Below are positions 2,832 to 51,490 of a stretch of DNA of 64,000 bases, one piece after another. The DNA is from Heterodontus francisci (taxonomy: Eukaryota): the NCBI RefSeq assembly GCF_036365525.1, contig NC_090381.1, positions 88,591,257 to 88,655,256 of the forward strand. Direction: 5' to 3'. The notes beneath the pieces are model-generated. The model saw only the letters and a program-made list of their open reading frames with translations, had not been told where the DNA came from and made no database searches. The translations under genes and the position numbers were made by a program. Positions within the stretch are counted from its first letter, which is position 1, and each line of letters begins with the position of its first letter.

Positions 2832-3231
2832 CTTCAAAAAAAACAGAAAAAGAAAAGTAGAGCAAAAACTATGATGTTTTGTTTTAGCTTTATACTCTGC
2901 CACATATTCTCTAAAATTTTTTAATGATTGAAAATATAGCCTTAAAAGAAGTAATCTCCTCAACTGTCTTTGTAGCCCATGTTAACATGACAGAAGATTG
3001 AATATCTCTGGTTTTTATGTCAATGCGCTTCTAATACTGATGCTAATCTCCACCAAATAATAACATAAAAATATTGTAGCATGCTGTTACTAAGTGATTA
3101 TTGAAGGAAACACTGCCACAGACTCAGTAACAATCTCCATTAGGGTGCTCTGGTACATTGGTACTGTACGGAGATTGCAGATGGCACCGTTCTGAACAAT
3201 GATAGCAACAATCTCCATAAGATTGTTGGAA

Positions 3232-3510: not shown

Positions 3511-6500
3511 TAGAATCATAGAATGTTACAATACAGAAAGAAGCCACTTGGCCCATTGTGTCTATGCCAGTCGAAAAATGTTCCACCCATTCTAATCCCA
3601 TCTTCCAGCATTTGGTCCATAACCCTACAGATTACAGCACTTGAGGTTCATATCCAGACTTCTTTCAAATGAGTTGAGGGTTTCTACTTCAACTACCCTT
3701 TCAGGCAGTGAGTTCCAGACCCCCCACCCCCACCCTCTAGGTGAAAAAACTTCTCCTCATCTCCCCACTAATGTTTCTATCAATCACTTTAAATCTATGA
3801 CCCCTAGTCACTGACCTCTCTGCTAAGGTAAATAGGTCCTTTACCTCCACTCTATCCAGGCACCTCACAATTTTGTACATTCCAATCAGATCTCCCCTCA
3901 ACCTTCTGTGTTCCAAGGAGAATGACCCCCATCTTATCCAATTTTTCTTCATAGCTGGATTTTCCCAGACCCGGCAACATCCTCATAAATCTTCTCTGTT
4001 CTTTGTCTAATGTAATTACATCCTTTCTGTAATGAGGTGACCAGAACTGCACACAGTAGTCAAGTTGTGGCCTAACCAATGATTTATACAGTTCCAGCAT
4101 AACCTCCCTGCTCTTATATTCTATACAAAGAACAAAGAACAAAGAACAGTACAGCACAGTACAGGCGCTTCGGCCCACAATGTTGTGCCGAACCTTTAAC
4201 CTACTCTAAAATCAAACTAACTACCTACCCTTCATTCTACTATCATCCATGTACCTATCCAAGAGTCGCTTAAATGCCCCTAATGTATCTGCTTCTACTA
4301 CCACCGCTGGCAGCGCATTCCACGCACCCACCACTCTCTGTGTAAAGAACCTACCTCTGACATCTCCCCGAAACCTTCCTCCAATCACCTTAAAATTATG
4401 CCCCCTGGTGATAGCCCTTTCCACCCTGAGAAAAAGTCTCTGGCTATCCACTCTATCTATGCCTCTCATCATCTTGTACCCCTCTATCAAGTCACCTCTC
4501 ATCCTTCTTCGCTCCAATGAGAAAAGCCCTAGCTCCCTCAATCTTTCTTCGTAGGACATGCCCTCCAGTCCAGGCAGCATCCTGGTAAATCTCCTCTCCA
4601 TCCTCTCTAGAGCTTACACATCCTTCCTATAATGAGGCGATCAGAACTGAACACAATATTCCAAGTGTGGTCGAACCAGGGCTTTATCGAGCTGCAGCAT
4701 AACCTCACGGCTCTTAAACTCAATCCCCCTGTTAATGAAAGCCAACACAGCATACGCCTTCTTAACAACCCTATCAACTTGGGTGGCAACTTTGAGCGAT
4801 CTATGGACATGGACCCCAAGATCCCTCTGTTCCTCCACACTACCAAGAATCCTGTCTTTAAGCCTGTATTCCACACTCAAATTCGACCTTCCAAAATGAA
4901 TCACTTCACACTTTTCCAGGTTGAACTCCATCTGCCACTTCTCAGCCCAGCTCTGCATCCTGTCAATGTCCCGTTGCAACCTACAACAGCCTTCCACACT
5001 ATCCACAACTCCAGCAACCTTCGTGTCATCGGCAAACTTGCTAACCCAGCCTTCCACTTCCTCATCCAGTCATTTATAAAAATCACAAAGAGCAGAGGTC
5101 CCAGAACAGATCCTTGTGGAACACCACAGGTCACCGAGCTCCATGCTGAAATCTTTCCATTTACTACCACCCTCTGACTTCTATGGGCCAGCCAATTTTG
5201 TATCCAGACAGCCAACTTTCCCTGAATCCCATGCCTCCTTACTTTCTGAATGAGCCTACCATGGGGAACCTTATCAAACGCCTTGCTAAAATCCATATAC
5301 ACCACATCCACTTCCTTCATCAATGTGTTTTGTCACATCTTCAAAGAATTCAATAAGGCTTGTGAGGCATGACCTGCCCCTTACAAAGCCATGCTGACTG
5401 TCTCTAATCAAACCATGCTTTTCCAAATAATCATAAATCCTGTCTCTCAGAATCCTCTCCAATAATTTGCCCACTACCGACGTAAGACTGACTGGTCTAT
5501 AATTCCCAGGGTTATCCCTATTCCCTTTCTTGAACAAGGGAACAACATTTGCCACCCTCCAATCATCCGGTACTACTCCAGTGGACAGTGAAGACGCAAA
5601 GATCATCGCCAAAGGCGCAGCAATCTCTTCCCTCGCTTCCCGTAATATCCTTGGGTATATCCCGTCTGGCCCGGGGACTTATCTGTCCTCATATCATTCA
5701 AAATTTCCAGCACATCCTCCCTCTTAACCTCAACCTGTTCGAGCATATCAGCCTGTTCCACGCTGTCCTCACAAACGACCAGGTCCATCTCACTAGTGAA
5801 TACTGAAGCAAAGTATTCATTTAGGACCTCCCCTACCTCCAGGCACAAGTTCCCTCCACTATTCCTGATCGGCCCTACCCTCACTCTGGCCATCCTCTTG
5901 TTCCTCACATAAGTGTAGAACGCCTTGGGATTTTCCTTAATCCTACCCACCAAGACTTTTTCATGTCCCCTTCTACCTCTCCTAAGTCCATTCTTCAGTT
6001 CCTTCCTGGCTACCTTGTAACCCTCTAGAGCCCTGTCCGATCCTTGTTTCCTCAACCTTAAGTAAGCTTCCTTCTTCCTCTTGACTAGCTGTTCCACATC
6101 TCTTGTCATCCAAGGTTCCTTCACCCTACCATCCCTTCCCTGCCTCATCAGGACAAACCTATCCAGCAGTCGCAGCAAGTGCTCCCTAAACAACCTCCAC
6201 ATTTCTGTCGTGCATTTCCCTGAGAACATCTGTTCCCAATTTATGCTCCCCAGTTCCTGCCTAATAGCATTGTAATTCCCCCTCCCCCAATTAAATTTAT
6301 TCCCATCCCGTCTGCTCCTGTCCCTCTACATGACTATAGTAAAGGTCAGGGAGTTGTGATCACTATCACCGAAATGTTCTCCCACCGATAGATCTGCCAC
6401 CTGGCCTGGTTCGTTGCCAAGCACCAAGTCCAACATAGTCTCCCCTCTAGTCGGCCTATCTACATATTGAGTCAGGAAACCTTCCTGGACACACCTGACA

Positions 6501-7570
6501 AAAACTGCTCCATCCAAACTATTTGCACTAAGGAGGTTCCAATCAATATTAGGGTAGTTGAAGTCACCCATGACAACAACCCGGTTACTTCTGCACCTTT
6601 CCAAAATCTGCCTCCCAATCTGTTCCTCCATATCTCTGTTGCTATTGGGGAGTCTATAGAAAACTCCCAACAAAGTGACTGCTCCTTTCCTGTTTCTGAC
6701 TTCCACCCATAATGACTCAGTAGACAAACCCTCCTCGACGACCTCCCTTTCTGCAGCTGTGATACTATCCCTGATTAGCAATGCCACTCCCCCACCTCTT
6801 TTACCTCCCTCCCTATTCCTTTTGAAACATCTAAACCCCGGAACATCCAACATCCATTCCCGCCCCTGTGATATCCACGTCTCCGTAATGGCCACAACAT
6901 CGTAGCTCCAAGTATTGATCCATGCTCTAAGTTATACCTTGGCTAATAAAGGAAAGAATTCCATATGCCTTCTTAACCACCTTATCGACCTGTCCTGCTA
7001 TCTTCCGGGATCTTTGGACATTCACTCCAAGGTCCTTCACTTCCTCTACACCTGTCAGTATTTTCCCATTAATCGTGTATTCCTTTGCTTTGTTTGATCT
7101 CCCCAAATGCATCACCTCAAACTTCTCTGGATTGAATTCCATTTGCCACTTTTCTGCCCATCTAACCTGACCATCAATATCTTCCTGCAGCCTACAGCTA
7201 TCCTCTTCACTATCTACCACTCGGCCAATCTTTTGTCGTCTGCAAACTTCTTGATCATGCCCCCCACATTTATGTTCAAATCATTAATATATATTACAAA
7301 AATCAGGGGACCCAGTACTGAGCCCTGCGGAATGCCACTGGAAACAGCCCTCCAGTCGCCAAAACACCTGTAAACAATTACCCTTTGTCTCCTGCTACCT
7401 TGCTGCATTTCGCGAGATCTCATGGGATTTTATTTTTTTAACCAGTCTGCCGTGTGGGACCTTGTCAAAAACCTTGCTAAAATCCAAGTAGACCACCTCA
7501 TCTATCTTCCTTGTTACTTCTTCAAAAAATTCTATCAAATTGGTCAGACAAGATCTTCCCTGAACAAATG
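3511..7570 (-). mobile_element. CR1 LINE fragment (RT C-terminal half + 3'UTR) split by a younger CR1; own parts 3511-4126 and 6933-7570
   Basis: ORF pieces YKSREVMLELYKSLVRPQLDYCVQFWSP (3852..4178), [13 protein letters not shown] (7214..7423), AEKWQMEFN (6927..7220). Confidence 0.88.
4127..6932 (-). mobile_element. Young 5'-truncated CR1 LINE (APE endonuclease + RT, frameshifted)
   Basis: AITETW..GGGV..GDFN..SDHN (APE); [30 protein letters not shown] (RT); (AAAGAAC)3 tail; TATAC duplicated at 4122-4126 and 6933-6937. Confidence 0.95.
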
Positions 7571-10530: not shown

Positions 10531-10710
10531 NNNNNNNNNNNNNNNNNNNNNNNNNNNNNNNNNNNNNNNNNNNNNNNNNNNNNNNNNNNNNNNNNNNNNN
10601 NNNNNNNNNNNNNNNNNNNNNNNNNNNNNNNNNNNNNNNNNNNNNNNNNNNNNNNNNNNNNNNNNNNNNNNNNNNNNNNNNNNNNNNNNNNNNNNNNNNN
10701 NNNNNNNNNN
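10531..10710. other. Assembly gap (180 N) in intron 2 of the fetuin paralog
   Basis: Run of N. Confidence 1.
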
Positions 10711-13370: not shown

Positions 13371-13972
13371 TCTTACCACTGAAAAATGGGAAGTTACGCA
13401 GCAGGCTACTTTCATAGAATTCCTAGCAGTTGGTTTCAAAGCAGAATTTAGGAGGCTTACCGACTTGTCTTTTAGGCCTGGAATTATGTAAGATATAAGG
13501 AGGTCCAAGCCAGGAGAAAGTGAACCAAATACCCAAAGGTGACTCTCCCCCTCAAAATAAAAATGCTTCAAATGTCTCAAAGGAGGACAAGGAAATAAAA
13601 AAAATTGTCAGAAATTTGAATGCAGTGGAATCATGCTTCAGCCTCTCTCCTTTAATTGTATAGTACCCTTAATTGTTTAATGCTTTATTGTGCATCATAT
13701 TTCATGTTCCAATTAACTACACAACACTCTAAAAATTGGGTTTGATCCACTGGAAAATTTGTATGGAGCATATGCATCCTGCTGACCCTTGCAGAGGTAA
13801 TATCCTGTTCCTGGTTTCCCTCCCGCCAAAAAAGGCAAAGTACCTTCAAAGGCAGAATTTAATAGGTGTCCTAATACATGGACCCACACACCTGGCAGCA
13901 CTTGCTTGATTCTTTAAGACCGGTGGCCAGGAAAACCCAGTGAAAAGTGAGTCTTCCTGGCCACGACTGGTC

Positions 13973-16900
13973 TTTTTTTTTAATTCATTCATGGGAATTC
14001 ACTGGCTAGGCCAGCATTTATTGCCCATCCCTAATTGCCCTTGAGAAGGTGGTGGTGGGCTGCCTTCTTGAACCGCTGCAGTCCATGTGGGGTGGGTACA
14101 CCCACAGTGCTGTTAGGAAGGGAGTTCCAGGATTTTGACCCAGCGACAGTGAACGAATGGCGATATAGTTCCAAGTCAGGATGGTGTGTGACTTGGACGG
14201 GAACTTGCAGTGGTGATGTTCCCATGTATTTGCTGCCCTTGTCCTTCTAGTTGGTAGAGGTCGCGGGTTTGGAAGGTGCTGTCTAAGCTCCCTTGGTGCG
14301 TTGCTGCAGTGCATCTTGTAGATGGTACACATTGCTGCCACTGTGCGTCGGTGGTGGAGGGAGTGAATGTTTGTAGATGGGATGCCAATCAAGTGGGCTG
14401 CTTTGTCCTGGATGGTGTCGAGCTTCTTGAATGTTGTTGGAGCTGCACCCATCCAGGCAAGTGGAGAGTATTCCATCACAACTCCTGACTTGTGCCTTGT
14501 AGATGGTGGACAGGCTTTGGGGATGAGTTACTCGCCTCAGGATTCCTAGCCTCTGACCTGCTCTTGTAGCCACGGTATTTATATGGCTACTCCAGTTCAG
14601 TTTCTGGTCAATGGTAGCCCCTAAGATGTTGATAGTGGGGGATTCAGCGATGGTAATGCCGTTGAATGTCAAGGGGAGATGGTTAGATTCTCTCTTGTTG
14701 GAGATGGTCATTGCCTGGCACTTGTGTGGCGCGAATGTTACTTGCCACTTATCAGCCCAAGCCTGGATATTGTCCAGGTCTTGCTACACGGACTACTTCA
14801 GTATCTGAGGAGTCACGAATGGAGCCGAACATTGTGCAATCATCAGCGAACATCCCCACTTCTGACCTTATGATTGAAGAAAGGCCATTGATGAAGCAGC
14901 TGAAGATGGTTGGGCCTAGGAAACTACCCTGAGGAACTCCTGCAGTGATGTCCTGGAGCTCAGATGATTGACCTCCAACAACCAGAACCATCTTCCTTTG
15001 CGGCTAGGTATGACTCCAGCCAACGGAGGGTTTTCCCCCTGATTCTCATTGACCTCAGTTTTGCTAGGGCTCCTTGATGCCATACTTGGTCAAATGCTGC
15101 CTTGATGTCAAGGACAGTCACTCTCACCTCACCTCTTGAGTTCGGCTCTTTTGCCCATGCTTGAACAAAGGCTGTAATGAGGTCAGGAACTGAGTGGCCC
15201 TGGCGGAACCCAGACTGAGCATCACTGAGCAGGTTATTGCTAAGCAAGTGCCGCTTGATGGCACTGTTGATAACACCTTCCAACACTTTATTGATGATTG
15301 AGAGTAGACTGATGGAGCAGTAATTGGCCGGGTTGGACTTGCCCTGCTTTTTGTGTACAGGACATACCTGGGCAATTTTCCACATTGCAGGGTAGATGCC
15401 AGTGTTGTAGCTGTACTGGAATAGCTTGGCTCGGAGCGTGGCTAGTTCTGGAGCACAGGTCTTCAGTACTATTGCCGGAATATTGTCAGAGCCCATAGCT
15501 TTTGCAGTATCCAATGCCTTCAGTCGTTTCTTGATATCACGTGGAGTGAATCGAATTGGCTGAAGTCTGGCATCTGTGATGTTGGAGACTTCAGGAGGAG
15601 GCCGAGATGGATCATCAACTCGGCACTTCTGGCTGAAGATTGTTGCAAATGCTTCAGCCTTATCTTTCGCACTGATGTGCTGGGTTCCCCCATCATTCAG
15701 GATGGGGATATTTGTGGAGCCATCTCCTCCAGTTAGTTGTTTAATTGTCCACCACCATTCACGGCTGGATGTGGCAGGACTGCAGAGGTTAGATCTGATC
15801 CGTTGGTTATTGGTTTGCTTAGCTCTGTCTATCGCATGCTGTTTACACAGTTTGGCATGCAAGTAGTCCTGTGTTGTAGCTTCACCAGGTTGACACCTCA
15901 TTTTGAGGTATGCCTGGTGCTGCTCCTGGCATGCCCTCCTACACTCTTCATTGAACCAGGGGTTGGTCTCCTGGCTTGATGGTAATGGTAGAGTGGGGGA
16001 TATGCCGGGCCGAGGTTACGGATTGTGCTGCTGCTGAGGCCCCACAGCGCCTCATGGATGCCCAGTTTTGCATTGCTAGATCTGTTCGAAATCTATCCCA
16101 TTTAGCACGGTGATAGTGCCACACAACACAATGGACGGTATCCTCAATGTGAAGGCGGGCCTTCGTCTCCACAAGGACTGTGCGGTGGTCACTCCTACCA
16201 ATACTGTCATGGACAGAAGCATCTGCAGCAGGCAGATTGCTGAGGATGAGGTCAAGTATGTTTTTCCCTCTTGTTGGTTCCCCCACCACCTGCCGCAGAC
16301 CCACTCTAGCAGCTATGTCCTTTAGGACTCGGCCAGCTCGGTCAGTAGTGGTGCTACCGAGCCACTCTTGGTGATGGACACTGAAGTCCCCCACCCAGAG
16401 TACATTTTGTGCTCTTGCCACCCTCAATGCTTCCTCCCAGTGGTGTTCAACATGGAGGAATACTGAGTCAGCAGCTGAGGGAGGGCGGTAGGTAGTAATC
16501 AGTAAGAGGTTACCTCGCCCATGTTTGTTCTGATGCCATGAGACTTCATGGGGTCCAGATTCGATGTTGAGGACTCTCAGGACAACTCCCTCCCTACTGT
16601 ATACCACTGTGCCACCACCTCTGCTGGGTCTGTCCTGCCGGTGGGACAGGACATACCCGGGGATGGTGATGGCAGTGTCTGGGACATTGTCTGTAAGGTA
16701 TGATTCCGTGAGTATGACTATGTCAGGCTGTTGCTTGACTATTCTGTGGGACAGCTCTCCCAACTTTGGCACGAGCCCCCAGACATTAGTAAGGAGGACT
16801 TTGCAGGGTCGACAGGGCTGGGTTTGCCGTTGTCGTTTCCGGTGCCTAGGTCGATGACGGGTGGTCTGTCTGGTTTCATTCCTTTTTATTGACTTTGTAG

Positions 16901-17232
16901 CGGTTGGGTACAACTGAGTGGCTTGCTAGGCCATTTCAGAGGGCAGGTAAGAGTTAACCACATTGTTGTGGGTCTGGTGTCACATGTAGGCCAGACCAGG
17001 TATGGACAGCAGATTTCCTTCCCTAAAGGACATTAGTGAATCAGATGGGTTTTTACAACAATCGACAATGGTTTCATGGCCATCATTAGACTAGCTTTTA
17101 ATTCCAGATTTATTAATTAAATTCAAATTCCACCTTCTGCTGTTGTGTGATTCGAACCCATGTCCCCAGAGAAATACCCTGGGTCTCTGGGTTACTAGTC
17201 CAGTGATAATACCACTACGCCACTGCCTACCC
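13973..17232 (-). mobile_element. Apparently full-length HER1-type LINE (CR1/L2 group) with tRNA-derived 5' head; single APE-RT ORF broken by frameshifts
   Basis: APE: LLTNVWGL..ILTESYL..GGGT..YRPP..GDF..SDH (15948..16913); RT: NYCSISLLS..DIKAAFDQV (14960..15901), PQGSFLGP..FADD (14752..14991); C-terminus KKAAHHHLLKGN; tail cccatgaatgaat+poly(A); head with A and B boxes. Confidence 0.92.
17149..17222 (-). promoter_or_regulatory. RNA polymerase III type 2 internal promoter (A box and B box) at the LINE 5' end
   Basis: A box TGGCGTAGTGG (17222-17212) and B box GGTTCGAATC (17158-17149) on the minus strand. Confidence 0.8.
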
Positions 17233-17674
17233 TTAATGATTACTCTGGGATTGCCAACCGCTTCATGAGATCCCCGCAATGATAGCGAGACAGTAGCTCA
17301 CAAGAAATGAAAATAAAAGCAGTTTAAGGTCAAAAATTGGATCTATTTTGCCCTCTTCCTCCATTAAGAAAATGGATACAAGTATTCATTTTACAAGTTT
17401 TTTACATTTCGTTAACATCTATTATAGTCTTGTGTGTATGTCTTCAGTGGGTCCACAGTCCCTTTTTCCACACTCTCTTAATGTATTTATAAAAGCTTTT
17501 GATGTTAGTTTCGATATCCCTTGCAAGTTTTTTTTTCTTATTCCTTTGTGCACCTCATTACTTTCTTTATCACAGCAAAAGAGGTGACGGGGCTGAATTC
17601 ATCTGTTTGAACCAGGTGTGAGCTGCACATTAGCTGATATTGCAGTGCTAGCCAGGAGTGAGACACAAGCAAAT

Positions 17675-17885
17675 TTTTTTTCTGTTCTTTCATGGAATGT
17701 GGGCATCACTGGCAGGCCAGCATTTGTTGCTCATCCCTAATTGCCCTTGAACTGAATAGCTGGCTTGGCATTTCAGAGGGAAATTAAGAGTCCACCTTAT
17801 TGCTGTGGGTCTGGAGGCCAGACAAGGTAAGGATGGCAGATTTCCTTCCCTCAAGGACATTAGTGAACCAGATTGGTTTTATGTT
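17675..17885 (-). mobile_element. HE1-type SINE, 5'-truncated (body + HER1 tail)
   Basis: Body homologous to 16915-17060 joined directly to the last ~60 nt of the LINE (caagggcaattagggatg..cccacattccatgaa + A-rich tail). Confidence 0.8.
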
Positions 17886-18544: not shown

Positions 18545-20762
18545 TCTTGCAGGGGGGTGGGACCTAAAGTAGCAGTCTCTCAGATGAGATAGTTGAGGCA
18601 AATGTAGAGGTTAAAGCAAGCAAGTCCAGTAGGCAGGCCAGGCAGGGGCAGGACAGGGAGCGTGGAAGGTCTGGTAGGCTAAACGGCATTTACTTTAATG
18701 CAAGAAGACTTACAGGTAAGGCAGATGAACTCAGAGCATGGATCGGTACATGGGATTGTGATATTATAGCTATTACGGAAACGTGGTTGAGGGATGGGCA
18801 GGACTGGCAGCTCAATGTTCCGGGGTACTGATCCTTCTGGCATGACAGGGGTGGAGGTAAGAGAGGAGGGGGAGTTGCACTATTGATTGGGGAGGACATC
18901 ACAGCAGTACTTAGAGAGGATATTCCAGGGGGAATGTCCAGCAAGGCCATATGGGTACAACTTAGAAATAAGAAAGGGGTGATCATTTTGATGGGATTAT
19001 ACTATAGGCCCCCCAGTAGTCAGAGGGAACTGGAGGAGCATATATGTAGGGAAATCACAGACAGGTGTAGGAATTATAGGGTTGTAATAGTAGGTGATTT
19101 TAACTTCCCTAATATTGACTGGGACTGCCTTAGTGCTAAGGGATCAGATGGGGAAGAATTTGTTAAGTGTGTCCAGGATAGTTTTCTGAAGTAGTATGTG
19201 GATGGCCCTACTAGAGAAGGGGCTACACTCGACCTCCTCTTAGGAAATGAGGATGGGCAGGTGGTTGATGTGTGTGGGGGGGAGCACTTTGGGACCAGTG
19301 ACCATAACTCTATCAGCTTCGAGATAGTTATGGAAAAGGATAGGACTGGTTCTCAGGTTGAAGTCCTAAATTGGGGGAAGGCTAATTTCAATGGCATCAG
19401 ATAGGAACTCTCGAAAGTTGAATGGGAGAGGCTGTTTACAGGTAAAGAGATGTCTGGCAAGTGGGAGGCTTTTAAAAGTGAGATAGGAAGAGTTCAGGGT
19501 CGGCATGTTCCTGTTAGATGGAAGGGCAAGGCTGGCAAGTTTAGGGAACCTTGGTTGACGAGGGATATTGAGGGTCTGGTCAGGACAAAGAAGGAGGCAT
19601 ACGTCAGGTATAGGCAGCTGGGATCAAGCGAGTCCCTCGAGGAGTATAGGGGATGTAGGACTACACTTAAGAAGGAAATTAGGAGGGCGAAAAGGGGCCA
19701 TGAGATTTCCCTGGCAGATAAGATAAAGGAGAATCCAGAAGATTCTGTAAGTATATTAAGAGTAAAAGGGTAGCTAGGGAGAGAGTAGGTCCCCTTAAGG
19801 ATCAGTGTGGCAATCTATGTGTGGTGCTACAGGAAATGGGCGAGATCTTAAATGAATATTTCTCATCCGTATTTACTGTGGAGAAAGTCATGGAAGCTAG
19901 TGAGTTCAAGGGAGGGAACAGCGATATCCTGGAGCATATCAACATTACAAAGGAGGAGGTGTTGGAGGTTTTGAAGGGCATTAAGGTGGATAAATCCCCA
20001 GGGCCTGACCAGGTGTATCCTAGGATGCTATGGGAAGCAAGGGAGGAGATTGCTGGGGCCCTGGCAGAGATTTTTGTATCATCGTTAGCCACGGGTGAGG
20101 TGTCGGAAGACTGGAGGATAGCTAATATTGTGCCTTTATTTAAGAAGGGCAGCAGGGATAAGCCAGGGAACTACAGGCTGGTGAGCCTTACATCAGTGGT
20201 GGGAAAGTTATTGGAAGGGATTCTGAAAGACAGGATTTATGTGCATCTGGAAAGGCATGATCTGTTTAGGGATAGTCAGCATGGCTTTGTGCGTGGGAAA
20301 CCATGTCTCACAAATTTGATTGAGTTTTTCGAGGAGGTGACCAAGAGGATTGACGAGGGCGGGGCGATGGACGTTATCTACATGGACTTTAGCAAGGCCT
20401 TTGACAAGGTCCCGCGTGGTAGGCTGGTCCAGAAGGTTCGAACACATGGGATCCAGGGTGAGCTAGCAAATTGGATACAAAATTGGCTTGGTGAGAGGAG
20501 GCAGAGGGTGGTCGTGGAGGGTTGTTTTTCTGATTGGAGGCCGGTAACCAGTGGTGTGCCGCAGGGATCGGTGCTGGGCCCTCTGTTGTTTGTCATATAT
20601 ATTAATAACTTGGATCTGAATGTAAGGGGCATGATTTGCAGATGACACCAAAATTAGTGGACAGTGAAGAAGGTTGTCTAAGGTTACAACAGGATATAGA
20701 TCAACTGGGAAAGTGGGCAAAGGAATGGCAAATGGAATTTAACACAGACAAGTGTGAAGTGA
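18545..20762 (+). mobile_element. CR1 LINE ORF2 (APE + most of RT) with stops/frameshifts; lacks its 3' end
   Basis: [51 protein letters not shown]; stops abruptly after WQMEFNTDKCEV. Confidence 0.93.
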
Positions 20763-26215: not shown

Positions 26216-26481
26216 CAGAACATAGTGTTCACAGTAGTAAGGACTTTTTTATTCACTCATGGGATGTGCGTATCGCTGGCTAGGCCAGCAATTATTGCCA
26301 ATCCCTAATTGCCCTTGAGAAGGCGGTGGTGAGCTGCCTTTTTGAACCACTGCAGTCCTTGTGGGGTAGGTACACCCACAGTGCTGTTTGGAAGGGAGTT
26401 CCAGGATTTTGACCCAGCAACAGTGAAGGAACAGCGATATAGTTCCAAGTCAGGATGGTGTGTGGCTTGGAGGGGAACTTG

Positions 26482-27376
26482 TGTCATGCAGACCCCCACC
26501 TGCCAAGAATGAGACATATTAATTTTGTCATATGAACATTAATTTTAAACTGTTGCTGGAGTGAAGAAATGACTTGTTAAAGAAATCACCAGACATTTCG
26601 GCTGGAAGGACATTTGCATACGAAGAGACGCTGCTTGTGGAGACAAAGGAGTATTCCCTGATCCAATTAACCCAAATGGATTTTGATCACCAGACATTGA
26701 ATGTGTAAGGAAGCACATTCCAGGGCCTGCTAAGATAATACAATCCACAAATGCAGAAGTGGTTAAGTTAGTCACACGACTGACCTGCTGGCCAACTTGT
26801 TTTTTTTATTTGTGCCACAGAGAAAGGAACAGAAGGCAGTTTGAACCAGAACCTGGAACAAGAAAGCCTCTCCCTGCTGGCTGGCTCTCTTTTGCTTTCT
26901 CCTAAGCCACTGGACCCACCAAAGACACGTAAACCTCAAGAGATAAAAGACTCCAACATCGAAACAAGTTGAAGTGTGTACCGGGTCCCAATGGATAGCA
27001 GGACTTAGTGGCAACCAAAGACCCCACATTGAACTCAAATAACTAACAAATGTTGCCTCAAACCTTTCCCCTTTATTCTTTCTACTTTTCTGTCTCTATC
27101 TGCATGTATGTTTATCGCGTATGCATGCCAGCGTGGTCGCGTCACATATTCATAGTGATTAACTGGATTAGAGTTTAAGATTAATAATCTTCTACCTTTC
27201 TTGTTTAAATCCAGGGAAACCTGTCTGATTTCTTTGCCTTACAATTGGAGCAGTGAACAAGAATTCACTGAGAGGGAGCTAAAAACATGGTGTTTTAAAA
27301 ATTAAACCCTGTTACGGTTAAACAAGGCAAAGGCTGAGAGGTAACCCCTAGACCCCTTTCTCACCTGGTTGTAACA
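26482..27376. mobile_element. Solo LTR (895 bp)
   Basis: TGTCA...TAACA termini; flanks CTTG/CATG (imperfect 4-bp TSD, host has a small deletion here); interrupts HER1. Confidence 0.7.
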
Positions 27377-28042
27377 CATGCATCTGCTGCCCTTATCCTT
27401 CTAGGTGGTAGAGATCGCGGTGCTGCCGAAGGGGCCTTGTTAATTTGCTGCAGTGTGTATTGGAGATGATACACACTGTTGCCACTGTGCGTCGGTGGTG
27501 AGAGAGTGAATGTTGAAGGTGGTGATTGAAGTGCCAATCAAGTGGGCTGCTTTGTTCTGGATGGTGTTGAGCTTCTTGAGTGTTGTTGGAGCTGCACCCA
27601 TCCAGGAAAGTGGAGAATATTCCATCACACTCCTGACTTGTATTTTGTAGATGGTGAACAGGCACTGGAGAGTCAGGAGGTGAGTTACTCGTTACAGAAT
27701 TCCTCGCCTCTGACCTGCTCTTGTAACCACAGCATTTATGTGGCTGGTACAGTTCAGTTTTTGGTCAATGGTAATCCCCAGGATGTTGATAGTGGGGGAT
27801 TCAGCGATGGTAATGCCATTGAACATCAAGGAGAGGTAGTTAGATTCTCTCTTGTTTGAGATCGTCATTGCCTGGCTCTTGTGTGGCGCAAATGTTACTT
27901 GCCATTATCAGCCCTAGCCTGGATGTTGTCCAGTTCTTGCTGTATCTAGACAGAAGCTGCTTCAGTATATGAGGAGTTGCGAATGGTGCTGAACATTGTG
28001 TAATCAACAGCGAACATCCCCACTTCTGACCTTATGATGGAT

Positions 28043-29271
28043 TGTAGCACCAGCTTTCTGGCCATTTTCATGAATCATATTTTAAATCCAAAACCCCAAT
28101 AAAGAACTGTACTGTTTGGTAAGCTTGTGGGAGTGGCTTAAGGAATAGGATTAACTGGCAGGAGTTTCGAGCCAGGCTAACCTGACTAAGGTGCATTCAT
28201 ATGCAAATGAACATTTCACACTGACAGGCTGGGTGGAAGGGAACCCAGGCCGATTGACGTCATCACCGTCGAACATGATTACTGGGAACAATACCCCGAG
28301 AGGTAACTCAATAAAGCACAGTCAGGACTCAGTCCCAACCAAATCTGGCAGAAGGCAGAGATGGCCGAGCCATTGGCTTCCAGGAGATAAACCAGTTAAG
28401 CAAGATTGGTTTGAGATTGAAACCCATTACCTGCTAATGGGAGCCATCAACACAGGAAGTGACAGACATCCAGTAATCAGCACTCATTGTCTCTCCAGTT
28501 GCCAGACCTGGGAGCAGGAAAACAAAATATAACTTTTCACAAAGATTTCAAAAGTCACTCACGGCCGCGGAGGTGGGGGGGTGGTAGTGGGGGGGGGGGG
28601 GGGTGGGGGGGGCGGCGCGGTTGTCCAGATAGATCATCTGAGTCAAAACATCGATCAGTATTGGCTGGAGAAAAGGTGATGGGTTTTGGATATATATGGA
28701 GCTGGCTCTTCTCGCTCCTCCTCGGCATCAATCTACAGCGAGTCTCCCGAGTGGGGCTCGGCTCCATTCAACGGAACACCACCAGAAGCTGAGTGCTGCT
28801 CTTCATTCCTCATCAATGGACCTCGACTCAGACTGGTAACCTGGCTACTGCGTCGGCAGTATGGAACCAGGAGCGAGACGTACAGGATGAAGCTGCAAGC
28901 AAGACAACGGGCATTCGGGGTGAGCATATTGCCTGCACCTACACATTCGCCAAGACCACTTAACTGTGTGAGGGGGTGATTGTAAGTCCTAACCAAACCT
29001 TAGAGGGGTTTAGTGCTGGGGGCCCTGTGTTAGTTTATTTCAGGGAAGGTTCTTTTATTAGGCTGTGGTAATTTAGCATGGTAGGGCTTGTTGGACAAGC
29101 CAAGATTGTACTATTTTGTACTGTTTATGAGTGTTATTGTTAATCTTATTAACCACAATACGGTTAAGCCCCGAAAACGTGGGTCGGAGTCTGATCTGTC
29201 CATATAATCCCTATCATCCAGCACTTGTAGTAAGAGGTGTGTTTTCAGTATGCCGGAGAAAACCACTTACA
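28043..29271. mobile_element. Solo LTR (1229 bp)
   Basis: TGTA...TACA termini; exact 4-bp TSD GGAT at 28039-28042 and 29272-29275; octamer ATGCAAAT 28201-28208 and CRE TGACGTCA 28255-28262. Confidence 0.82.
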
Positions 29272-29596
29272 GGATGGAAGGTCATTGATGAAGCAGCTGA
29301 AGATAGTTGGGCCTAGGATGCTATCCTGATGAACTCCTGCAGTAATGTCCTGGAACTGAGATGATTAACCTCCAATAACCACAACCATCTTCCTTTGTGC
29401 TAGGTATGATTCCAACCAGCGGAAAGCTTTCCCCCTGATCCCCATTGACTCCAGTTTTGCGAGGGATCCTTGATGCCATACTCGGTCAAATGCTGCCTTG
29501 ATGGCAAAGGCAGTCACTCTCACCTCACCTCTGGAGTTCTTTGCTTAGCAACACAGTAAAAAAATGTTTCTTCCTTGGTATGCTAATTCCAAACAT

Positions 29597-33557: not shown

Positions 33558-34431
33558 ATTTCCATGTTAATCTGCCTGATATCCTGATGTTGCAATCAGT
33601 TTCAGAGGAGTAATGATGGTGAACACTGACAGTCCACTGTCAACCATCACCAACCGCCCCCAAAATCCAGCCTAATATACTTCCAGGTCAGGATGGCATG
33701 TGACTTGGAGGGAAACTTGCAGTTGGTGGTGTTTCTGTGCACCAGATGCCCTTGTCCTTCCAGGTGGTAGAGGTCACGGGTTTGGAAGGTGCTGTCGAAA
33801 GAGCCTCGGCGAGTTGCTGCAGCACATCTTGTGGGTAGGACATACTGCGGCCACTGTGTGCTGATGGTGGAGGGAGTGAGTGCTTAAGATAGAAATGAGT
33901 GGCTTGCTAGGCCATTTCAGAGGACAGTTAAGAGTCAACCACGTTGCTGTGGGTCTGGAGTCACATACAGACCAGACCAGGTAAGGACAGCAGATTTCCT
34001 TCCCAAACGGCATTGGTGAATCAGATGGGTTTTTACAACAATCTAGTAGTTTCATGGTTATCATTACTGATACTAGCTTTTTATTCCAGATTTATTTAAT
34101 TAACTGAAGTTGAATTCCCCAGTTGCCATGGTGAGATTTAAACTTGTCTACGGATCATTTAATGCTGCCCTCTGGATTACTGTGGTTAGTGATTAGTAAC
34201 ATAACCACTGTGCTACAATATCCTGGATAAAGTGGATGTGGTATAGCCATTTTAACCAGATGCAGGATTTTTTATTTCACTCAGGCTACATAATGAATTG
34301 ATTCAAATATATGAGGGTGCTCCGCATGACTGGAACCAAGAGTACTTGATATAAATCTGAAAGTTGTGCTTATAATGTTACTTTTGAAGATACCTGCTAC
34401 CCCAACAATGAAATGTAAACATCATCCAAAG

Positions 34432-48859: not shown

Positions 48860-51490
48860 CTCATGCCCAGTGTTTAACCAAATGTAGGTCATGCTTCTGA
48901 GCTGGTAGCTGAGAGTGTGAAATCAAGTGACGGTGCATCTGCATCATCATTGAGTTCTTGTTGTTCCTCCACTTGCCTGGCCACGTTGCATTTTTGAGTA
49001 TCTGAAAGGGGAAAGTCATAAGGTTAAGGTTTGTCTGCGAGGAGGGGGGAAGCAAGATGTGCATGCTTACTCCAACTGCAGCTTATAAATCTGAAGAGAG
49101 TGCGGACGAGAGGGAGGTGGGATGTGAAAAGGAGGATTAGGTTAGAGGGTACCATCAAATTCAATGGTTTCAGTTCCTGCGCTGGCCAGGGCCTCAGCAA
49201 CTGGCTTCTCACTAACGGCCAGCACCATCTCCTTCACAGGGGGTAGAATATGTAGGCTCCTGCTACCTCCAGTTATGCACCACCTAGAACATAGAACATA
49301 GAACAGTACAGCACAGTACAGGCCCTTCGGCCCACAATGATGTGCCAAATCTTTAACCTACTCTAAGATCAAACTAACTACCTATCCCTCATTCTACTAT
49401 CATCCATGTACCTATCCAAGAGTCGCTTAAATGCCCCTAACGTATCTGCTTCTACTACCACCGCTGGCAACACATTCCACGCACCCACCACTCTCTGTGT
49501 AAAGAACTTACCTATGACATCTCCCCGAAACCTTCCTCCAATCACCTTAAAATTATGCCCCCTGGTGATAGCCCTTTCCACCCTGGGAAAAAGTCTCTGA
49601 CTATCCACTCTATCTATGCCTCTCATCATCTTGTACCCCTCTATCAAGTCACCTCTCATCAATCTTCGCTCCAATGAGAAAAGCCCTAGCTCCCTCAATC
49701 TTTCTTCGTCGGACATGCCATCCAGTCCAGGCAGCATCCTGGTAAATCTCCTCTGCACCCTCTCTAAAGCTTCCACATCCTTCCTATAATGAGCTGACCA
49801 GAACTGAACACAATATTCCAAGTGTGGTCGAACCAGGGCCTTATAGAGCTGCAGCATAACCTCGCGGCTCTTAAACTCAATCCCCCTGTTAATGAAAGCC
49901 AACACACCATATGCCTTCTTAACAACCCTATCGACTTGGGTGGCAACTTTGAACAATCTATGGACATGGACCCCAAGATCCCTCTGTTCCTCCACACTAC
50001 CAAGAATCCTGTCTTTAAGCCTGTATTCCACATTCAAATTCGACCTTCCAAAATGAATCACTTCGCACTTTTCCAGGTTGAACTCCATCTGCCACTTCCC
50101 AGCCCAGCTCTGCATCCTGTCAATGTCCCGTTGCAACCTACAACAGCCTTCCACACTATCCACAACTCCAGCAACCTTCGTATCATCGGCAAACTTGCTA
50201 ACCCAGCCTTCCACTTCCTCATCCAAGTCATTTATAAAAATCACAAAGAGCAGAGGTCCCAGAACAGATCCTTGTGGAACACCACTGGTCACCGAGCTCC
50301 ATGCTGAATACTTTCCATCTACTACCACCCTCTGACTTCTATGGGCCAGCCAATTTTGTATCCAGACAGCCAAATTTCCCTGAATCCCATGCCTCCTTAC
50401 TTTCTGAATGAGCCTACCTTATCAAACGCCTTTCTAAAATCCATATATACCACATCCACTGCTCTTCCTTCATCAATGTGTTTTGTCACATCTTCAAAGA
50501 ATTCAATAAGGCTTGCCCCTCACAAAGCCATGCTGACTGTCTCTAATCAAACCATGCTTTTCCAAATAATCATAAATCCTGTCTCTCAGAATCCTCTCCA
50601 ATAATTTGCCCACTACCGACGTAAGACTGACTGGTCTATAATTCCCAGGGTTATCCCTATTCCCTTTCTTGAACAAGGGAACAACATTTGCCACCCTCCA
50701 ATCATCCGGTACTACTCCAGTGGACAGTGAAGACGCAAAGATCATCGTCAAAGGCGCAGCAATCTCTTCCCTCGCTTCCCGTAATATCCTTGGGTATATC
50801 CTGTCTGGCCCCGGGGACTTATCTGTCCTCATATCATTCAAAATTTCCAGCACATCCTCCCTCTTAACCTCAACCTGTTCGAGCATATCAGCCTGTTCCA
50901 CGCTGTCCTCACAAACGACCTGGAAGAGAGAGGTGTGTCAGTGAGTGTTGTGCAATCTGTTTGGGTGATGTAATTGTCATGGTTGAATGTGCGTAAACTA
51001 TGAGGTGTGTGTTTGAGGCTTGCAGCAGTGTGGTGTGTGTGAGGGTGTGCTGAAGCTTATGAATGTTAGGTGTGAGTCCCGATTACTCAAAATGAAGTGA
51101 GTGCTGGGGGTGCAATGAAATGAGCAATCTCTGAGGCCAGTCATGCTGTTGGTAAGTTATGGCATTTGAAGATGTATTCACTGACCTTGAACACTTGTGT
51201 GAGGTCATTCATCTTCTTGTGATACTGTATTGAGGCCCTCCACAGTCAGCTGCTCCCACTGCCTTCTGAGTGTTTGTCTGGAGAGCCTCCCGTAATCCTA
51301 CGGATACAGGATGTCTTCCTCCTTTCCACCTCTTCCACTAAGACCTCCAGTGTGCAGTTAGCACTGGCTGGAAGCTAAAATCATTCAAATCCGCAGCAAC
51401 ACAAAGTTGATGTGCTGCCTGCATTGCAATGAACAGGCACAGAACAATCATGCATTGTGATTCTCACACCCATTTTCAGGGGCTATCCAA
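48860..51490 (-). mobile_element. Harbinger Myb-like gene remnant (same family as 20925-21800), split by CR1
   Basis: Minus strand LEVLVEEVERRK..RKKMNDLTQVFK|gtcagt; homology of 48890-48980 to 21680-21770 and of 50930-51050 to 21080-21215. Confidence 0.6.
49286..50917 (-). mobile_element. Young 5'-truncated CR1 LINE (RT), near-identical to 4127-5780
   Basis: 331-aa uninterrupted RT C-terminal ORF 49378..50373; (ATAGAAC)n tail; ACCT duplicated at 49282-49285 and 50918-50921. Confidence 0.95.

Follow-up and report, generated by a model that had tools for sequence, protein, structure and literature searches.

An APE-RT LINE of a shark genome with a complete tRNA-SINE module at its 5' end, a candidate transcript of RNA polymerase III

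Polymerase and coding capacity separate long from short interspersed elements (LINEs from SINEs). A LINE served by a polymerase other than RNA polymerase II (Pol II) is known in R2, a retrotransposon with a single open reading frame (ORF), uncapped RNA and a non-canonical translation start; R2 borrows the RNA polymerase I unit of the ribosomal DNA, and a ribozyme frees its 5' end. The element described here (positions 13973–17232, minus strand, 3,260 nt, of a 64,000-nt stretch of Heterodontus francisci DNA, contig NC_090381.1; the whole stretch is called the window, and coordinates are window positions on the minus strand unless stated otherwise) differs from R2 in having a tRNA-type promoter of its own and in inserting genome-wide. 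It joins the promoter of one class to the enzymes of the other. Judged from its sequence, RNA polymerase III (Pol III) transcription from the internal tRNA-type promoter, as an autonomous single-ORF LINE with an APE endonuclease and a reverse transcriptase (RT), would be the best explanation (probability about 0.65).

The element and the SINE of this genome resemble the Deu-SINEs SacSINE1 and LmeSINE1 with their LINE partner: tRNA head, conserved body and LINE-type tail, in a cartilaginous fish. The SINE is presumably SacSINE1 and the element its LINE partner; the conserved body is taken to be the Deu domain, and the match of head and body to the described SINEs is likewise assumed. At about 410 nt, the SINE lies within the reported range of up to 463 bp (PMC5499810, in excerpt). 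The pairing table of PMC3747384 gives SacSINE1 (Deu) with a CR1-4_DR-like LINE, and PMC5499810 names L2-2_CM as the LINE partner of a Deu-type SINE; in the excerpts of both papers SINE-LINE homology is reported at the 3' tail only, whereas the LINE here holds the whole head and body of the SINE.

Bipartite LINE-derived SINEs (Bov-A/Bov-tA, RTE- and Vingi-derived; PMC5786205 and PMC7245038, in excerpt) also consist of LINE 5' and 3' ends united by internal deletion and are non-autonomous; there the tRNA head was added to the deleted derivative, the LINE being without a head, and the Repbase screen in these excerpts gave only RTE and Vingi 5' regions in SINE bodies. The 3' end of the element is like that of B2, Dip and Ves SINEs (PMC8466645, in excerpt), which have a similar pattern of terminator and A tail (AATAAA, short variable T run, A tail); those SINEs differ in being short and non-coding. 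In the full-text literature searched, no report was found of a Pol III-driven autonomous LINE or of a LINE with a Deu-SINE head; Repbase, Dfam and the original SINE descriptions (Nishihara 2006, Ogiwara 1999 and 2002) may already hold it.

The tRNA-SINE module and its family

A complete tRNA-SINE module forms the element's 5' end; it consists of a leader, a cloverleaf that carries the A and B boxes, and a conserved body. The 5-nt leader (17228–17232) is the fixed 5' end of the family, as given by the start points of copies and by ARAGORN, the tRNA call of which begins about 5 nt inside the element (L041, L044). The tRNA-derived head (17137–17227; ca. 90 nt, long variable arm; ARAGORN on family copies) contains sequence matches to the Pol III type-2 A box (17212–17222) and B box (17149–17158), correctly described as intact in an earlier note on this DNA; the base after the B box of the window copy is unlike that in most other copies. 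The A box was identical in 24 of 41 copies read, most others differing at CpG; the B-box core was intact in 22 of 37, and 14 more differed only at CpG. ARAGORN called the head as tRNA-Thr(agt) in 13 of 36 loci (10/23 young LINEs, 3/5 SINEs, 0/8 old LINEs); the head of the decayed window copy was not called as a tRNA, and Rfam gave sub-threshold matches only. The body (16912–17136; alignment of 20 SINE loci and 7 LINE copies) is conserved and common to the LINE and the SINE, and is the 5' untranslated region (UTR) of the LINE. Thousands of heads scoring as tRNA-Thr(agt) may inflate tRNA gene counts in shark annotations.

The APE-RT frame opens about 300 nt after the 5' end. It encodes the APE endonuclease domain (16185–16787; PF03372, E 9.5e-10; PF14529, E 1.3e-10) and the RT domain, the first part of which lies at 14984–15349 (PF00078, E 2.6e-15); downstream of this part the frame is broken in the window copy, a worn copy with its ORF split into several frames. 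A natural copy, L040, has a 942-codon open frame that runs from a basic, AUG-less ORF leader (16803–16925; column counts over copies) to a stop codon (14031–14033; end of the L040 frame) within the tail common to the SINE; this tail begins about 10 nt upstream of the stop. The 3' UTR (13973–14030) consists of AATAAA (14022–14017), a short T run and the A tail. With endonuclease and RT in one frame, the element is an APE-type retrotransposon without long terminal repeats (LTRs); family copies are dispersed, 5'-truncated and LTR-free, with an A-rich or simple-repeat tail. In common with a tRNA-derived SINE (SINE2), it begins 5' with a tRNA head that bears A and B boxes, and its sense strand has no internal Pol III terminator; it is not short and non-coding, being 3.3 kb long with an APE-RT under purifying selection.

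The joint of head and LINE belongs to the family as a whole and occurs in its old as well as its young subfamilies. Two sets of copies were read. The junction-picked set (39 copies, found with a query spanning the body-ORF joint) contains the joint by construction; 33 of these copies begin within 10 nt of the element 5' end and 6 inside head or body, with unrelated flanks. The protein-picked set (20 of the 150 matches to an APE protein query, selected because their open frames are long) is independent of the joint; 13 copies begin at the head, 3 inside head or body, and 4 are cut at 322–432. Neither another 5' end nor an ORF1 was found among these 20 copies, and there is no room for an ORF1, the lack of which had been claimed. 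A joint unique to this locus had been set as the outcome that would refute the earlier note; instead, exact pattern matches gave at least 3,990 LINE-type joints against at least 3,270 SINE-type joints, both counts being lower bounds. The family makes up 10% of 464 kb of unselected DNA, in which the head is joined to the ORF in three old copies (81–84% identical) as well. This anatomy is real, and it is both abundant and old. Target-site duplications (TSDs) were tried as a test of the head as 5' end and proved uninformative, the family making no clear ones: 26 of 37 full-length copies had none, 10 had matches of 5–7 nt and one lay in a tandem repeat; 211 of 1,332 mismatched pairs also matched. 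Absence of TSDs is common in CR1/L2-group elements.

The SINE of this genome is the LINE minus its ORF, head and body being joined to the last ca. 70 nt of the LINE from just before the ORF stop. Through three or more age classes the heads of LINE and SINE have changed together, as would fit a SINE derived from the LINE several times over, or heads exchanged repeatedly; either module may have come first. Recent capture of a young SINE head by the LINE, read from a tree with LINE heads nested among older SINEs, was rejected as a sampling effect, because in a pattern search the LINE joint was present in 238 old-type heads, and of 20 such heads fetched, 17 run into LINE sequence (the others: 2 deletion products with other joints, 1 that ends there). 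Between old and young copies the codon columns show 49 synonymous against 25 replacement changes; the ORF was therefore under purifying selection while carrying the head. Two diverged fragments considered as divergent sister families in this genome were old decayed copies (best matches 80–84% and ca. 70%). Relatives with DNA context were not found in viral contigs, and metagenomes gave two uninformative matches. A non-autonomous derivative with a different joint, body (element 113–324) to element 2861–3070, lies at 33675–34103; L147 and L151 show two further joints in derivatives.

Avoidance of T runs

The sense strand of the window element contains no TTTT, TTT at 10 places and 15 runs of A4 or longer, tail included, in agreement with the earlier note (none, about 10, more than a dozen). 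The AAAA-free stretch of the plus strand, 13943–17310, is the longest in the window; the next longest is 1,275 nt. The CR1 at 4127–6932, cited for its many sense TTTT runs, has 11 of T4 or longer (T4+), all five cited positions included. The first copy set (117 kb) held 23 T4+ runs, against 492 A4, 380 C4 and 265 G4; the second (61.6 kb) held 4. The T4+ rate climbs with decay (0.14, 0.30 and 0.63 per kb in young, middle and old copies), and no T4 column was found in any age class. Other LINE coding segments of the genome gave 108 T4+ runs in 28.6 kb (1.7–8.3 per kb in 16/16 clusters). A second copy (26245–29540) had been adduced as equally free of TTTT; its pieces do lack T4, but it is a headless 3' fragment of the same family and not an independent case.

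Shuffling by base composition gave an expectation of 4.9 T4+ runs (P(0) = 0.007), close to the 5–6 estimated beforehand from composition, an estimate that did not hold under the dinucleotide-preserving shuffle given below. Uniform synonymous codons gave 4–5 TTTT (P 0.002–0.01 for zero). The avoidance of T runs exceeds amino-acid and codon composition for TT and TTT, not for TTTT alone. The earlier note had named such composition as a second refuting outcome; neither this test nor that of the joint refuted its interpretation, which is partly supported. Observed/expected (O/E) T|T at codon junctions in five natural frames (CpG-aware synonymous shuffles, amino acids and codon use fixed): 7/18.8, 3/15.6, 5/15.5, 2/12.9 and 0/11.8 (P ≤ 0.0005 each); eight control LINE clusters: O/E 0.77–1.18. 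Among 12 junction pairs only TT was depleted; avoidance of UU/UA (RNase L-type) was ruled out, TA not being depleted. The four TTT columns of the young ORF are all in-frame Phe codons. Human Pol III also terminates at degenerate T-rich signals (PMC3141230, in excerpt), which would explain selection below the T4 level. Some related proteins, P0010 (amphioxus), P0006, P0038 and P0027, are low in Phe too (1.5–2.3%; family 2.0%) and without FF, a possible trace of T-run avoidance at the protein level, seen in proteins only.

At the 3' end, 9 of 51 ends, a mixture of LINE and SINE copies, have a run of T ≥ 4 immediately ahead of the A tail, the T count varying from 0 to 6; two internal T-A sites gained T in 1/57 and 1/65. 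The first T4 of the flank is at a median distance of 67 nt.

Proposed expression and rival explanations

If Pol III transcribes the element, it would be recruited by TFIIIC/TFIIIB and start just upstream of the cloverleaf; it could read 3.3 kb because oligo-T terminators, canonical as well as degenerate, would have been selected against. It would stop at the 3' T run or at the first T4 of the flank, and AATAAA may allow A-tailing as in B2-type SINEs. The uncapped RNA would be translated non-canonically, by UAG read-through after AUG-GCC or from a non-AUG start guided by body structure. The APE-RT would then insert the RNA by target-primed reverse transcription, and internal deletions or template switches would repeatedly yield non-coding SINEs that keep head and tail.

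An in-frame ATG-GCC-TAG (16926–16934; column counts) stands immediately before the long frame, within a small hairpin (fold of L041). The ATG is present in 56/56 copies and the TAG in 44/56; among the joints listed, TAG was found in 75/100 of the LINE and 74/100 of the SINE type, and it is the source state in both. In the aligned copies no in-frame ATG column was found from the TAG up to where the APE domain ends. The distance to a conserved ATG out of frame was 32 nt in 57 of the 61 copies read. Among young copies, 51 of 55 have the leader frame open, the other two frames being closed in all; among old and middle copies, which are few, frame +1 is often open too. As there is no usable AUG, the frame must be translated in a non-canonical way, whether by reading through the stop, by starting at a codon other than AUG or by shifting frame from the out-of-frame ATG. 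Such translation would suit an uncapped RNA and proves none. A CAG subfamily with an open AUG frame was considered and rejected: a tree of low resolution places the CAG copies apart from one another (7 changes for 8 rows), and non-TAG triplets are equally common in SINEs (26/100) and LINEs (25/100). The TAG triplet (16926–16928) is changed in about one quarter of copies, LINE and SINE, well above the average decay of the family.

The Deu domain could act as a translation element in the 5' UTR, with a 7-nt anticodon-like loop pairing with an in-frame codon as in dicistrovirus-type entry sites. In the body's last hairpin (16918–16938) the 7-nt loop is identical to that of the anticodon arm in the oldest type of head (L142, L149, L153), and a complement of 3–5 nt to this loop lies about 20 nt downstream, in frame, in LINEs and not in SINEs. 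Pairing of the anticodon-like loop was not retained as a result: it rests on 3–5 nt and was found after the fact, and the subfamilies are too close for covariation.

Several points weigh against transcription by Pol III. Pol III transcripts are uncapped and normally far shorter. Zero TTTT by itself is weak evidence: the dinucleotide-preserving shuffle expects only 2.3 runs (P(0) = 0.09). Once codon use is fixed it is not significant: shuffles with the element's own codon use expect 2.1–2.2 TTTT (P 0.07–0.10 for zero), and the CpG-aware null 1.2–1.6 (P 0.18–0.26 for zero). Two control clusters are mildly TT-poor (O/E 0.77 and 0.82, P 0.02–0.03), and a LINE of the element's own clade known to use a Pol II promoter was not among the controls. 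All copies come from one lineage; the five frames are near-identical and the age classes only 2.4–4.7% apart, and the TT depletion therefore counts as about one observation. At the 3' end a third internal T-A site is variable, and the gain of T may be general mutation at short A tails. Contigs from four sequencing runs, coded as four organisms, covered all 30 bins and contained SINE-type joints in all four runs, and none of those listed bridges the head-ORF joint; they were not used as evidence of expression, as neither start nor strand nor level can be read from them and DNA may underlie the run labelled 'RNA'.

The codon-aware P values for zero TTTT (0.07–0.26), together with T at 21% of the sense strand and Phe at 2.0% against 4.0% in the other LINEs of the genome, are in line with composition or chance, that is, with low T and low Phe giving a TTTT-free frame and with head-bearing copies being repeated SINE/LINE chimeras and not the source. 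This is very improbable and largely refuted already: one fixed joint occurs in at least 3,990 exact matches, above the count for the SINE joint; no protein-picked copy shows another 5' end; the TT-junction depletion persists with amino acids and codon use fixed, and a control cluster of similar four-fold-site composition has 2.1 T4 per kb. That TTTT absence alone lies within chance also leaves room for a Pol II element, in which the tRNA/SINE module would be a captured 5' UTR acting as Pol II promoter, RNA-processing signal or folding element, and T avoidance would reflect selection against signals for splicing, polyadenylation or U-rich decay. Pol II transcribes LINEs as a rule (PMC5786205, in excerpt), and internal Pol II promoters also yield fixed 5' ends. 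Such an element is nevertheless unlikely: the A and B boxes, like the cloverleaf as a whole, have been preserved and have changed together with the SINE, the other LINEs of the genome, presumably Pol II-transcribed, lack the depletion, TA is not depleted, and the 5' end falls 5 nt before the cloverleaf, not where an RNase P cut would be expected.

Head, T avoidance and 3' T run would be explained equally well by a division of labour, with Pol III making the template RNA and the protein coming from Pol II read-through of copies in host units, the element being in effect a very long coding 'SINE' mobilized partly in trans. No uncapped RNA would have to be translated, and with the family at ca. 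10% of sampled DNA many copies would lie in host transcripts. This arrangement is rather improbable, somewhat more so than a Pol II element: purifying selection on the ORF of the master lineage is easier with cis preference, and the frame would still be without an AUG.

Transcription of the autonomous element by Pol III is accordingly preferred over these alternatives. Its fullest form, a self-sufficient coding Pol III retrotransposon without cap or AUG, with the Deu body as translation element and Deu-SINEs as ORF-less deletion products, is doubtful on the present sequence comparisons. If Pol III makes the RNA, the element would be a natural 3.3-kb protein-coding Pol III unit, and Pol III could deliver translatable RNA. 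The origin and function of conserved SINE bodies, a long-standing question, becomes testable here, the body being a 5' UTR directly before an AUG-less ORF; descent of Deu-SINEs such as SacSINE1 from a LINE by loss of the ORF would, if true, explain why these bodies are conserved.

Family identity and neighbouring repeats

In a quick tree the RT falls outside the branch of 10 local CR1-type pieces, among invertebrate-type, mostly unnamed proteins of ca. 40% identity, one of them from amphioxus; named proteins of 77–79% identity to that of the element are from sharks. The family protein is 25–35% identical to the ordinary CR1s (4127–6932 and near 49.4 kb). A second SINE type of the genome shares its tail with these CR1s, and the tail of the family studied differs. 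The second SINE is presumably HE1 and the ordinary CR1s HER1. The element lacks the features of the CR1 clade or HER1, namely RT grouping and tail in common with the local CR1s and an ORF1 upstream of ORF2; the local CR1s stood in for HER1 in this comparison. The label HER1, given to the element in the earlier note, is probably wrong, because the pairing table of PMC3747384 (in excerpt) gives HER1 the V-SINE HE1; RT placement and tail point the same way. HER1 and HE1 are likewise a shark LINE-SINE pair with a common tail, differing in that HE1 is a V-SINE.

At 17674–17880 the family is also represented by a separate SINE copy, older and 5'-truncated, in which body and tail meet directly (sequence comparison). 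The headless 3' fragment of the LINE family mentioned above spans 26245–29539 and comprises ca. 1.15 kb in three pieces (29278–29539, 27377–28041, 26245–26481). The ordinary CR1-type LINE copies that served as controls, in which remains of APE/RT are present, lie at 4127–6932, 18709–20758 and 49378–50883. A run of 180 N occupies 10531–10710. A copy of the second SINE type, ending with the ordinary CR1 tail, is inserted in the body of an old copy (L116:7482-7735).

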